The notes under the pieces are model-generated. The model was not told the DNA's origin, made no database searches, and saw only the letters and a program-made list of their open reading frames with translations. Below are positions 3,182 to 48,275 of a stretch of 64,000 nt of DNA, piece after piece. This DNA comes from Escherichia phage vB_Eco_NicPhage: sequence record OY726582. One strand, written 5' to 3'. The translations under genes were made by a program, and so were the position numbers. Numbering within the stretch: the first letter of the stretch is position 1; each line of letters starts with the position of its first letter.

Positions 3182-4054
3182 ATGGCATTTTTTAAGCAAA
3201 CTCCTAAACAATTAATCGATACCGGCGAAATTGGTAATGCCTCAACAGGTGATATCTTATTCGACGGTGGTAATAAAATAAATGACGATATCAACGCTAT
3301 TTACAATGCATTTGGCGATCAACGTAAAATGGCCGTAGCAGATGGAACCGGACCTACAGGTCAAACTATTCATGCCACAGGTTATTATCAAAAAGGAAAG
3401 GCGATCGATTATCAAACTCCTATTAAACCCGGCACCATGCATGATATTGATGCTTCTGATGGCGGTGTGATTGTTATTATTGACCGTCCTGAATTAGGTG
3501 ATTCTGTAGAATTCATAAACTCTAATGGGTCTATTTCTGTTAACAATCCTTTAAGTATCCAAGTAACCGATGGTTCAATTAAAGGTGTTCTTAATAATCT
3601 TGTTATTTCCACCCCTTATACCCATGTTGTTCTTCGTTGTGTTGAACTTAACGGGCCAACTTCAGTATGGAATTATTCTACTGATAGCATGTTTGGGCAG
3701 AAAGAATCTCCTGTCGATGGGACTTGGAGTCTTACAGGAAACTCAGTTTCTATTCCTCTGTTTTATCGCACAGATTATAATATGGCTAAATTGCTTGTTA
3801 CATGCCAATCCGCCGACGGTAGAAAAATAAAAACATGCGAAATAAATATTCTAATAGATACAATTAACTCAGAAGTTCTTTCTACTGAATTTGCAGTAAT
3901 GCGAGTTGGTAATGTAGATGAAACCGACGAGATTGCTAATATTAGCTTTAGTATTATTAACAACTTTGCTACTATGACGATTACATCCGATATTATTGGA
4001 TTACGTTCAGCAGTTAAAATTATCTCAACTCAGAAAATTGGGGTCGCTCAATAA
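3182..4054 (+). CDS. 9: Baseplate wedge protein gp9 (long tail fiber socket)
   Basis: 290 aa; N-terminal LIDTGEIGNASTGDILFDGGNKIN and C-terminal KIGVAQ recognised as T4 gp9-like; late promoter TATAAATA 33 nt upstream. Confidence 0.9.
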   Translation: MAFFKQTPKQLIDTGEIGNASTGDILFDGGNKINDDINAIYNAFGDQRKMAVADGTGPTGQTIHATGYYQKGKAIDYQTPIKPGTMHDIDASDGGVIVIIDRPELGDSVEFINSNGSISVNNPLSIQVTDGSIKGVLNNLVISTPYTHVVLRCVELNGPTSVWNYSTDSMFGQKESPVDGTWSLTGNSVSIPLFYRTDYNMAKLLVTCQSADGRKIKTCEINILIDTINSEVLSTEFAVMRVGNVDETDEIANISFSIINNFATMTITSDIIGLRSAVKIISTQKIGVAQ

Positions 4055-46594: not shown

Positions 46595-46963
46595 TTATGC
46601 AACTTTAATCCAATTGTCTAAATTTAAAACACCTTTGGCTTTCATTTTTTCGATCAGGTTATCTGCTGTAATGCGTCCATTTTGATACCATGTAACATCT
46701 TCAGAGTAACCAGTTTCTTCGTCAACATATGTTTCTGAACGAATTTTACCGGTAATAATAGTTTTTAATTCATATGTGTCACCTGTGAAAAAGTTTGCTA
46801 ACACAATTTTCCAAGAGAAATCATCTGAAGGACCTTCAGGGGTCATACAACCTACGAACTCAAATTGCTCTTTGTATAACATCCACTGGAATTCTTTAAT
46901 TTCGATAGCTTTATAACCGTCGTGGTCTTTACATTTGATGTATGAGTTCAGATTGATTTTCAT
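46595..46963 (-). CDS. Hypothetical protein (122 aa), possible paralog of the previous gene
   Basis: Own early-promoter-like element (47006-47034); FVGCMTPEG segment. Confidence 0.55.
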   Translation of the reverse strand: MKINLNSYIKCKDHDGYKAIEIKEFQWMLYKEQFEFVGCMTPEGPSDDFSWKIVLANFFTGDTYELKTIITGKIRSETYVDEETGYSEDVTWYQNGRITADNLIEKMKAKGVLNLDNWIKVA

Positions 46964-47005
46964 TTTGTTCTCCGGTTTGTTTTATCGATTAGGTGGTACA
47001 AGTCT

Positions 47006-47034
47006 ATAGTAACACATCCTACAGGAGAGTAAAC
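47006..47034 (-). promoter_or_regulatory. Early promoter (TTTACT-N16-TACTAT) for ORF 46595..46963
   Basis: Minus strand reads gTTTACTctcctgtaggatgtgtTACTATagac. Confidence 0.45.
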
Positions 47035-47071
47035 ATCTTTTTTAAACTTTTTCTGCCCTAAACGCACAAAA

Positions 47072-47089
47072 GGGAGACCGAAGTCTCCC
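47072..47089 (-). terminator. Minus-strand terminator GGGAGAC-UUCG-GUCUCCC + UUUUGUG downstream of the small basic ORF
   Basis: Identical stem-loop to the gene 23 and gene 32 terminators. Confidence 0.7.
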
Positions 47090-47094
47090 TAAAA

Positions 47095-47274
47095 TTATGC
47101 AACAACCTTTCCAAAACGAGAAGCATCATCTCGAAGAACTGCACGTGCTCTGCGCATGATCTTCTCAACTGTTTGATTAATACGAGAGTTCGACCCACGC
47201 TTGTATCCAGCGCGTTTAGAGGTACCATCAACTTTCTTTTCAACTGCTTTCTTTGCTTTAGCTTGTTTTGCCAT
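47095..47274 (-). CDS. Small highly basic protein (59 aa), not in the ORF track
   Basis: Hand translation of the minus strand: MAKQAKAKKAVEKKVDGTSKRAGYKRGSNSRINQTVEKIMRRARAVLRDDASRFGKVVA; followed by the terminator hairpin at 47072-47089; the ORF-track entry 47058..47243 is in another frame of the same region. Confidence 0.4.
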   Translation of the reverse strand: MAKQAKAKKAVEKKVDGTSKRAGYKRGSNSRINQTVEKIMRRARAVLRDDASRFGKVVA

Positions 47275-47569
47275 TATAAATTCTCTTTAAATGAAAATGC
47301 AGGACTTATTGACATTGCCTGCGCAAGCCCTCAAGGGGAACATAGGTTTTGGATATTTAACGACAGGATAACCATAAACCCGTCATCATACCAACCACGA
47401 CTTAGACAGATAACCTTTTTCTGACGCGTGATAGTACAAAATACATTCAAGAGGTACACCGTAAAACTGCCGGGGCCTTAAAACTATAATGATTCGCAAA
47501 TCATTAATCAGACAGTTCGACGGCTCCTCGATTTTCTAGCCGCACTTAAGGTAGCGAATCACCTAAAAC

Positions 47570-47818
47570 TTATTTAAGGGTAATAACAAAATGACGTACT
47601 GCTTTACGAGCTGCAGAAGCCAAAGGCTTAGCATATTTCAGTTCATCTTTTGCTTCCAGTTCAGAGGCCAAAGCTGCCTGTACCGGGTTCAGATGTTTGA
47701 AATAATGCAGGATTTCCAGTGCTTCGGCTTCAACATCAATCGACGCGCCGTAGTTTTCGTGACCGTTATTCCATGCGTTTCGTTGCAGTTCAAGAGCGTG
47801 TTGTAATTGTTTAATCAT
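47570..47818 (-). CDS. rIII: rIII lysis-inhibition accessory protein
   Basis: 82 aa, identical to T4 RIII length, immediately downstream of gene 31 as in T4. Confidence 0.75.
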   Translation of the reverse strand: MIKQLQHALELQRNAWNNGHENYGASIDVEAEALEILHYFKHLNPVQAALASELEAKDELKYAKPLASAARKAVRHFVITLK

Positions 47819-47923
47819 TTTAAATTCTCAATTCGAGATAATATTTAGTAGCCACGTTCGTCTGAATTTCACCTTCTTTCGACAAGTCTCTCAGTTGTAG
47901 GCTACCGCTTAGAAGAGTGTTCT

Positions 47924-47942: not shown

Positions 47943-48275
47943 TCACTTATAAAGACACGGAATAGCTTTATAGTGGCATGTTACGAATTTCTGTTTAATT
48001 TCTTTAGGTTGTTTAAGTCCCAAAGCCACAAATGGATGTGGAACATTTCGAATTTGTCCAACTGGTAGTGGAGTCAAATCACCGACTTCAACAAAACCTT
48101 CAGGAACATCAGGACCTACAGAATGAACTACACATAGTTCAGGAACTTCACCTTGAACACGTTTACCAATCACAAGTCCTGATTCGGTAACTTCTTCATC
48201 ACCTGCTTGAGCGGGTTCAGAAACCAGAATGACATATTCACCAACAGCACGAATTGGGAGTTGTACTTCAGACAT
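47943..48275 (-). CDS. 31: Co-chaperonin gp31 (GroES functional analogue)
   Basis: 110 aa (T4 111); near-identical to remembered T4 gp31 ([34 protein letters not shown]...). Confidence 0.9.

Follow-up and report, generated by a model that had tools for sequence, protein, structure and literature searches.

What occupies the 295 bp between the genes rIII and 30.9 of Escherichia phage vB_Eco_NicPhage (record OY726582)? The stretch analyzed here, the window, comprises 64,000 nt of this genome. In it the gap between the two genes runs from 47275 to 47569, with all local genes on the minus strand. An initial annotation had pointed to this gap as an island without open reading frames (ORFs), and had listed a non-coding RNA, the remnant of a deleted gene or mobile element, a replication or recombination site, and a long 5' untranslated region (UTR) of the “small basic gene” (30.9) as candidate explanations. 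The first of these is borne out: base-pair covariation was found in three modules, one module is homologous to a known RNA, and the island is a conserved, structured non-coding RNA locus. The known RNA is ToxI, the pseudoknotted RNA antitoxin of the ToxIN abortive-infection systems. As to function, we favor a transcribed anti-defense and/or regulatory RNA leader in which the ToxI-type module, M3, would act as a decoy for the toxin ToxN, and we put the chance of this slightly above even.

Conservation and structure of the island

The window derives from a Mosigvirus, a T4-like coliphage, and is 99.8% identical to vB_Eco_mar005P1 across 46900–47900. With the island as query, homologous DNA was found in 775 phage records, including those of T2, T4, and T6; the T4 match (AF158101, 130541–130778) carries no annotation and lies in a 30.9/rIII gap that extends to 130784. 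The island is conserved, and more so than the flanking genes rIII and gene 31: between the window and T4 it is 93.4% identical, as against 92.1% for 30.9, 89.2% for gene 31, 85.5% for rIII, and 52–75% for neighboring intergenic regions.

A further 60 rIII loci were gathered from viral and metagenome contigs, in addition to GenBank records; the loci compared carry L-numbers as labels (L005 is phi92, L008 and L034 are TG1, and L009 is VR26). From the rIII stop to the 30.9 start there are 126–422 nt among lineages; of about 55 related loci examined, only two do not show the island modules, which recur in varying order in the others. The window carries five modules in the order M3, M4, M5, M1, and M6, followed by the 30.9 ribosome-binding site and AUG. 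RNA position i on the minus strand, counted from 47572, corresponds to window coordinate 47573 − i.

47533–47564, minus strand: M3, a single ToxI-type pseudoknot unit, AGGUGAUUCGCUACCUUAAGUGCGGCUAGAAA, followed by an AAAU site (GAAAAUC)
47443–47535, minus strand: M4, a conserved 93-nt domain of three nested helices
47391–47442, minus strand: M5, a variable insert with a long hairpin
47407–47423, minus strand: inner hairpin of M5, CAGA-AAAAGGUUA-UCUG
47336–47392, minus strand: M1, an H-type pseudoknot present in every locus having the island
47379–47386 with 47360–47367, minus strand: stem 1 of M1, 6–8 bp across relatives
47370–47373 with 47345–47348, minus strand: stem 2 of M1
between the two stems, minus strand: A-rich loop of M1, GUUAAAUAUCCAAA
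47293–47341, minus strand: M6, directly before the 30.9 ribosome-binding site
47328–47338, minus strand: small hairpin of M6, CCCCUUGAGGG, then CUUG
47300–47322, minus strand: second hairpin of M6, GCAGG...CCUGC, then a U-rich tail, AUUUUCAUUU

For M4, 98.9% of cells are paired and five pairs show compensatory change, which none of 500 shuffles reached; slid controls gave at most one. Intermediate series from G-C through G-U to A-U are seen, for example at CCGU/ACGG, and the M4 helices also appear in the single-sequence minimum free energy (MFE) fold. The innermost helix is the inverted repeat AATGATT/AATCATT (47487–47506), which had been quoted as AATGATT-CGCA-AATCATT at 47488–47505 and does lie there to within a base or two. 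The GC-rich patches that had also been noticed were located as CCGGGGCC at 47470–47477 and GCCGCACTTAAGGTAGCGAATCACC at 47539–47563 (within a base or two); the second is the reverse complement of the ToxI-like unit.

In its general form M1 has a conserved loop, GUUnnnGGUUAUC, and an A-rich loop, GUUAAAUAnCCAAA, and its stem 2 is formed by the loop with a downstream AACCnnn. This second stem varies by lineage, occurring as CAAGGUU/AAUCUUG, UUGUUGGUU/AACCAACGG, UGUGAG/CUCACA, UUAGUAGUU/AACUACUAA, GAUGG/CCAUC, and UAGUGGG/CCCUACUA; in the window it comprises only GGUU/AACC. Covariation over both stems is 0.32 in an unfitted MAFFT alignment, compared with 0.136 in shuffles (0 of 500 reached it). 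An alignment-free comparison of duplex energies between cognate and permuted partners gave 0 of 5000 for each stem, with control pairings flat. A covariance model of M1 scores 70.2 bits (E 4e-15) and finds a single copy in the 64-kb window. A pattern scan for the M1 core returned seven matches, all of them chance: a single Photorhabdus coding gene accounts for three, and the M1 model recognizes none of the seven.

In architecture M1 resembles the type III antitoxins, every one of which is an H-type pseudoknot with single-stranded tails. The M1 pseudoknot spans about 45 nt, its first loop is short, and another loop is long and rich in A; CptI, at 45 nt, likewise has a long A-rich loop. We treat the resemblance to CptI-type antitoxins, an analogy of form, as a lead only; the CptN and TenpN loci that would serve as a comparison set for M1 were not reached by a search from the ToxN sequence.

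Could the island instead encode a protein? It had been claimed that no ORF exceeds about 28 codons. This holds for ATG starts, the longest such ORF in the gap being 26 amino acids (47291–47371, plus strand), but not for alternative starts, as a mechanical ORF list shows:

47386–47499, minus strand: 37-amino-acid ORF, TTG start
47331–47459, minus strand: 42-amino-acid ORF, GTG start
antisense to 30.9, plus strand: 83-amino-acid ORF, TTG start

Neither the 37- nor the 42-amino-acid ORF belongs to a PHROG family. The former is annotated in some GenBank records, and a 33-amino-acid ORF in one; the 33- and 37-residue “hypothetical proteins” placed over the island in G53 and NRG-P0074 are probably spurious. 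A 51-bp deletion reduces the 37-residue frame to about 20 codons in T4, single-nucleotide indels fall within the most conserved blocks of the island, and the ORFs differ between lineages. No relative lineage examined has an intact ORF in the gap; the alignment to T4 and its relatives, which had been proposed as a check, therefore speaks against a frameshifted gene. Given ORFs that are not conserved, the indels, and the 51-bp loss shared by T4 and phi92, we reject the pseudogene reading. A conserved micro-ORF over M1, AUGAUG...UAA, was also considered and rejected, its frame being shifted by a single-nucleotide indel between close relatives.

Nor does the island hold a transfer RNA (tRNA). In line with the earlier failure to fold a cloverleaf, ARAGORN reports no tRNA or transfer-messenger RNA anywhere in the window, and no tRNA in six related loci. 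Rfam 15, searched with 2 kb around the locus, the 306-nt island, and five related loci, returned noise only, and M1 had no match in the island scan even at E ≤10. The covariance-model and tRNA scans, likewise proposed at the outset, thus assign the island to no Rfam family.

M3 and the ToxI antitoxins

The sequence of M3 is AGGUGAUUCGCUACCUUAAGUGCGGCUAGAAAAUC. The 36-nt ToxI repeat, AGGTGATTTGCTACCTTTAAGTGCAGCTAGAAATTC, occurs in tandem at 100% identity in Pectobacterium atrosepticum pECA1039, directly upstream of a terminator and toxN, and at 100% in 75 other small enterobacterial plasmids; the ToxI repeat of small Escherichia coli toxIN-type plasmids is identical to that of pECA1039. M3 agrees with the pECA1039 repeat at 32 of 36 positions, and equally with the unit of pPA21A, and a degenerate ToxI pattern has an exact match at 47533–47564, where none is expected by chance.

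How does M3 differ from ToxI? There is a compensatory pair of changes, U9C with A25G; UUU is shortened to UU; and the 3' junction reads AAAAUC in place of AAAUUC, which we take to be the additional 3' A of PhiTE variants. Upstream of the repeat, four bases also differ, reading UUUU as against AUUC in ToxI. In the pseudo-ToxI of phage PhiTE, changes corresponding to U9C/A25G, UU, and the extra 3' A were reported to be without effect on antitoxic activity, whereas C27G or U28A abolished it (PMC3475682). The ToxN-contact bases C27 and U28 are intact in M3, where GCUAG is present.

Across 14 phage and plasmid units, the two helices (2–4/13–15 and 9–11/23–25) are 97.6% paired, with compensatory change in three of the six pairs and 12 doubly changed cells against 2.7 in shuffles, in an alignment that was padded by hand and for that reason leans toward structure. 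Slid controls gave no doubly changed cells except two at one offset. The helices are those deduced in this analysis, the 9–25 pair being the one confirmed in the text of PMC3475682.

The bases just after M3, AAAAUCGAGGAG, which are also the first bases of M4, resemble a unit junction and the start of a second unit when compared with L087 and L088. No toxN adjoins M3, its neighbors being rIII and 30.9, which makes it an orphan unit of the mimic type, and not a toxin-antitoxin locus. Rfam does not recognize genuine ToxI either, so its silence is uninformative for M3.

To which ToxI does the unit belong? Five divergent enterobacterial ToxN loci were compared, with ToxN proteins 34–42% identical to ToxN_Pa, and each has its own array of 36–38-nt repeats. 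Best matches of the phage units were as follows:

window M3: pECA1039 and pPA21A types (tie), 89% each
T4/236Ecol unit: Pantoea pBH6c type (related unit in E. coli pRHB30-C10_4), 71–76%
L043 unit: E. cloacae type, 84%
L048 unit: E. coli pRHB30 unit 1, 86%

By sequence, then, the M3 variants of different phage lineages match different ToxI subtypes. The possibility that the T4 unit is a decayed ToxI_Pa was rejected, since it matches another subtype better. The window unit equals that of pPA21A over nucleotides 1–25 and in GAAAAUC, and shares GCUA (26–29) with pECA1039. In pPA21A, from P. atrosepticum (L086, 181–600), an array of at least 10 ToxI units, which fill the 420 nt looked at, lies upstream of a ToxN 37% identical to ToxN_Pa. 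The pPA21A unit carries U9C/A25G and UU, as do the window and the PhiTE pseudo-ToxI, so that these “phage” variants are natural ToxI alleles. The weak sensitivity of RB69 to toxIN was considered as an M3 effect and set aside: RB69 is without M3, and its partial toxIN resistance is therefore not due to it.

ToxI-like single units were found in 200 phage records, 163 of them from Klebsiella phages. The N4-sized phage Bas88 (L074, 701–740) has a near-perfect unit with both AAAU sites in a 3' UTR before a terminator, and SeKF_80 (L076, 701–739), a Moazamivirus, has the same layout. In JSF10 (L075, 701–739), a T5-like Vibrio phage, the unit lies between tRNA-Lys and tRNA-Arg and carries the compensatory pair U9A/A25U. 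These three phages are unrelated to the T4-like phages and represent independent occurrences, and the placement of their units in tRNA arrays and 3' UTRs argues that they are made as RNA.

Transcription and the exchange of modules

The surroundings of the island are those of an intercistronic leader:

47943–48275, minus strand: gene 31
47866–47838, minus strand: sigma-70-like site upstream of rIII, from a promoter scan
between gene 31 and rIII, minus strand: late-promoter motif TATAAATA, read in the sequence
47853–47900, minus strand: M7, a long hairpin module between gene 31 and rIII, outside the island
47570–47818, minus strand: rIII, the upstream cistron (ORF and annotation)
47272–47290, minus strand: 30.9 ribosome-binding region and AUG, AAAGAGAAUUUAUAAUG, read from the sequence
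47095–47274, minus strand: 30.9, the “small basic gene” (59 amino acids, basic)
47072–47093, minus strand: intrinsic terminator after 30.9, GGGAGAC-UUCG-GUCUCCC then UUUU, annotated in three related records
46595–46963, minus strand: 30.8

The terminator past 30.9 closes a transcription unit of rIII, island, and 30.9, and no terminator is called within the island. A promoter scan found nothing inside it, with a total not above that of shuffles. In the literature, rIII is stated to have early, middle, and late promoters (PMC9409239), and the rIII promoters are the likely source of island transcripts.

Some annotations around the locus deserve a caution. The 30.9 protein matched nothing in Pfam, NCBIfam, PHROGs, or the PDB, and the T6 record extends it to 72 amino acids, into the island, probably spuriously. 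The label “1,4-alpha-glucan branching enzyme, GH-13-type” in AV111 and FP43 (under the 46900–47900 match) and in EC101 (under the island match) is probably spurious as well. Separately, a DAHP synthase (AroG-like phospho-2-dehydro-3-deoxyheptonate aldolase) is annotated beside cd in the close relatives L002 and L003 (both 3811–3999); an auxiliary metabolic gene of this kind is unusual in a T4-like phage, and the equivalent place in the window is just beyond cd, above 49212.

The modules have been swapped and reordered among T4-like phage lineages, and their distance to the 30.9 start differs accordingly from lineage to lineage:

T4: M3-M4-M1-M6
VR26: M3-M4-M2-M1-M6
Klebsiella-type loci (L031/L041): hairpin-M1-M3-M2-M6a-M7
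TG1: M6a-M1-M3-M5'

M5 is missing in T4 and phi92, which lack a 51-bp block, and in VR26-type phages the 150-nt M2 stands in its place. Structural support for M5 is weak, a single pair being compensatory (A-U to C-G in L011). The M5-homologous hairpins of L028, L048, and TG1 have a U-tract directly before the 30.9 ribosome-binding site. The M6 motif GUWCCCYUYGAGGRCUUG is present in nearly all lineages, either at the M6 place or right after the rIII stop. Its second hairpin is swapped elsewhere for unrelated hairpins at an equal position, and CAGG/CCUG becomes CUGG/CCAG in STML-198. A scan for intrinsic terminators makes no call on this hairpin (stem of 5 bp, loop of 13 nt), and better terminator-like hairpins occupy its position in other lineages. 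RNAalifold on close relatives favors another fold, which leaves the M6 structure uncertain.

Two modules lie outside the island of the window. M2, a domain of about 150 nt (GCGGCAAGUGCAUGCUACC...GCUAACGGUGUGCAACAGAUAAGAG), is absent from the window and is found in VR26 (L009, 799–1196), L023, L033, L041, and others. By RNAalifold on relatives, 20 of its 43 pairs are compensatory; neither Rfam nor the E. coli genomes offered a match, and the domain looks like a structured RNA of an uncharacterized kind. M7 is the only island-related copy elsewhere in the window. It matches a hairpin just upstream of 30.9 in L033-type loci (BLAST E 6e-8), its closing stem covaries (GUAGCC/GGCUAC vs GGGAGC/GCUCCC), and it overlaps the promoter-like site upstream of rIII. 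BLAST against 72,556 plasmids and 5,426 E. coli genomes found no bacterial counterparts of M4–M6 or M2/M7.

Two rearranged loci are instructive. Downstream of rIII in Yersinia phage TG1, about 16 first codons of 30.9 are fused to an unrelated ORF of about 208 amino acids, and the upstream modules M6a, M1, M3, and M5' are intact despite this replacement. In phi92, which is not T4-like (NC_023693, about 2410–2770), a T4-type island lies between tRNA-Gly and tRNA-Gln in the tRNA orientation. On both sides lies a 13-nt direct repeat, TTTATTGGAGATT, whose second copy makes up the 5' end of tRNA-Gln. After the island comes the ATGG of 30.9, joined in frame to rIII codons 40–82 or so, a product annotated as a 43-residue “rIII”; phi92 is without 30.9 and has kept the modules. 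The 30.9 AUG is retained in both rearrangements. The phi92 copy is a circularly permuted T4 fragment, and this layout suggests that an intermediate, circular or tandem, was joined at microhomologies.

Readings of the island and their consequences

What, then, might the island do? In a model quoted in PMC10853763, ToxN is activated when toxI is depleted after transcription shutoff, and the PhiTE pseudo-ToxI is a precedent for RNA mimicry of the antitoxin (PMC3475682). On the reading that we favor, infection would shut off host transcription, the unstable host ToxI would decay, and the endoribonuclease ToxN would be set free to cut phage mRNAs. The phage would meanwhile continue to transcribe its own ToxI-like unit from the rIII promoters; ToxN would bind this unit, possibly trim it at the 3' GAAAAU site, and remain sequestered. 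Each lineage would carry a unit matched to its own ToxI subtypes, that of the window suiting the pECA1039/E. coli and pPA21A types. M1, M4, M5, and M6 could be further protein-binding decoys, or they could serve M3 and 30.9 as scaffold, in processing, or in translational control; M4, M5, and M6 are lineage-restricted or weakly supported.

A number of observations weigh against this reading, and every functional statement about the island is one that we infer. M3 accounts for only 32 of the 295 nt. Its 5' flank, GUUUU, has no AAAU/GAAAU ToxN site of the kind that bounds genuine units, and one full unit plus about 12 nt resembling the next unit start makes some 1.3 units, not a tandem array; the 1.5 repeats of wild-type PhiTE were not protective and needed expansion (PMC3475682). 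M3 is missing in RB69 and the L018–L020 phages and is thus dispensable, and the divergent loci L045 and L066 are without the island, rIII being directly followed by a strong terminator. T2, T4, and T6 carry an M3, of another subtype, yet are strongly restricted by E. coli toxIN (PMC9391042), although such restriction fits a T4 unit of a different subtype. No bacterial counterpart of M1 was found among the plasmids or the 5,426 E. coli genomes, and a pattern scan covering 185,579 genomes also yielded none. As for structure, M5 and M6 are nearly without covariation, and the covariation controls leave some phylogenetic relatedness in. The MFE of the whole island is no better than that of shuffles (z = −0.27 on the minus strand, −1.59 on the plus strand); single-sequence folding being unremarkable, the case for structure comes from covariation, and stability alone would miss the element.

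Could the island be a purely cis-acting leader of 30.9, with M1 and the hairpin beside the ribosome-binding site as a translational operator or attenuator and the ToxI-like unit incidental? The leader might be bound by the 30.9 protein itself, as T4 gene 32 protein is on its own leader, or by a small ligand. The island always stands directly upstream of the 30.9 start, with a hairpin always before the ribosome-binding site, and in L028, L048, TG1, and L070 the hairpin with its U-tract gives a riboswitch-like layout of pseudoknot plus terminator. The phi92 and TG1 rearrangements kept leader and AUG joined to new coding sequence, 30.9 is a basic protein of 59 amino acids, and the gene 32 pseudoknot is a T4 precedent (PMC3014915). 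The suggestion of a long 30.9 5' UTR is right insofar as the island is an intercistronic leader within one promoter-to-terminator unit; a leader role alone leaves its conservation unexplained. Distances from module to start vary (about 60–300 nt for M1), and the modules persist where 30.9 has been replaced (TG1) or is absent (phi92). In several lineages (L031, L042), 250–300 nt separate M1 from the ribosome-binding site, and M3 and the 150-nt M2 lie in that interval, a poor fit to a unit of aptamer plus platform. Module order is shuffled, and in L066, where the island is missing and an extra gene has been inserted, 30.9 is driven by an early-type promoter of its own (GTTTAC...TATAAT). A cis leader also does not explain why M3 tracks ToxI subtypes or why unrelated phages have ToxI-like units in their tRNA arrays and 3' UTRs, and no Rfam riboswitch or leader family (for M1, a preQ1-I-like pseudoknot would be an example) was matched. 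We regard this explanation as unlikely on balance, though it retains real weight.

A bolder extension of the decoy idea takes the whole island, with M2 and M7, as an exchangeable array of decoy RNAs, each mimicking the antitoxin or regulatory RNA of another host immune system, M1 being directed against a widespread nuclease, and all transcribed throughout infection from the rIII promoters. The ToxI mimic, M3, would then simply be the earliest of these decoys to have been noticed. We offer this extension as speculative and doubtful.

Might the transcript instead give rise to stable small RNAs, one or several, that serve housekeeping or host takeover, outside defense, and are cut from the rIII-30.9 transcript by host RNases? 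A modular run of compact folds is reminiscent of a tRNA/small RNA cluster, the phi92 element lies among tRNA genes in the same orientation, TG1 retains the modules although its 30.9 is not intact, and RNAs C and D of T4 show that such RNAs exist (PMC3014915). Neither the island nor M2, however, has sequence similarity to rnaC or rnaD, no module is tRNA-like, and the sole module with an identifiable relative points to defense, so that we consider this decidedly unlikely.

A DNA-level element, whether internal promoters, a recombination or mobile regulatory cassette, or an origin-type repeat, with incidental RNA folds, would account for the mosaic distribution and module exchange between genera, and the permuted, direct-repeat-flanked phi92 insertion suggests a circular or tandem DNA intermediate. 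There is also a weak −35/−10-like TTTTAC-17-TATTTT at the M4/M5 junction of the window, and beside the 30.9 start a 10-bp “ori type 2 repeat” is annotated in one record. The promoter-like sequence is absent from T4 and not conserved, though, and the promoter scan was empty in the island and no higher in total than in shuffles. The compensatory changes, including the G-C to G-U to A-U series, keep the pairing of the minus-strand RNA: a G-U intermediate corresponds to a C-A mismatch on the opposite strand, so it is on the minus strand that pairing is preserved. The earlier suggestion of a mobile element was half right, in that modules have changed order from lineage to lineage and phi92 has acquired a T4-type copy; for a replication or recombination site we found no evidence. 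A DNA-level element strikes us as very improbable. A decayed gene or mobile-element leftover without present function would suit the variable length (126–422 nt) and the whole-block insertions and deletions, but is scarcely credible for an island that is more conserved than its flanking genes, has no relative with an intact ORF in the gap, and changes in step with base pairing, not codons.

Returning to M3 as a candidate decoy for ToxN, how does the locus compare with known systems? M3 has in common with the ToxI of ToxIN (pECA1039 and enterobacterial plasmids) its 32 of 36 positions, both pseudoknot helices, C27/U28, and the 3' AAAU-type site. ToxI, however, forms arrays of 3–10 tandem units there, whereas M3 is single, has no toxN beside it and no 5' cleavage site, and is embedded in a phage mRNA leader. 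The closest parallel is the PhiTE pseudo-ToxI (Blower et al. 2012, PMC3475682), also an orphan ToxI-like sequence in a phage, of about 1.3–1.5 repeats, which shares the U9C/A25G and UU variants with M3 and has RNA mimicry of the antitoxin as its proposed mechanism. It differs in bearing the inactivating C27G/U28A and working only after expansion, whereas M3 keeps C27/U28. PhiTE is, moreover, an rV5-like phage, whereas M3 belongs to a larger conserved RNA of several modules, widespread in Tevenvirinae and diversified into several ToxI subtypes.

Other comparisons lie within the T4 group. The leader of T4 gene 32, an autogenous translational operator (PMC3014915), is like M1 an H-type pseudoknot in a 5' leader with A/U-rich sequence after it, and gene 32 and 30.9 are both T4-type genes for small nucleic-acid-binding-like proteins; the two pseudoknots have no sequence relationship, and M1 lies at no fixed distance from the start. 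TifA, the ToxN inhibitor encoded by T4 gene 61.4 (PMC9391042, PMC10853763), serves the same phage group against ToxIN, but is a protein encoded at another locus. The stable RNAs C and D of the T4 tRNA cluster are likewise structured phage RNAs, and the phi92 copy of the island also lies in a tRNA cluster; they differ from the island in sequence and in genomic locus.

The TifA papers (PMC9391042, PMC10853763) make no mention of a ToxI-like RNA in T-even phages, and the literature searched contains no description of this locus or of such an RNA in these phages. Mimicry by a pseudo-ToxI has been known from PhiTE since 2012; new with respect to the literature searched are the composite island, the M1 pseudoknot, and the subtype-matched single units. 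According to a 2010 review, T4 had yielded no functionally characterized riboswitch or trans-acting regulatory RNA (PMC3014915).

T4 is the reference lytic phage, and yet its genome record holds a stretch of some 240–300 nt without annotation at this locus. M1, M2, and M4 are covariation-supported RNA motifs that are not in Rfam, and M1 is present in every related island-bearing locus. If the decoy reading is true, M3 would be an RNA partner to TifA and could confound the crediting of toxIN resistance to TifA alone. The match between phages and ToxI subtypes would then provide a predictor, readable from sequence, of the ToxIN variants that a phage evades. Mimicry of type III antitoxins would be a standing and diversified counter-defense of T-even and unrelated phages, and not a curiosity of PhiTE.

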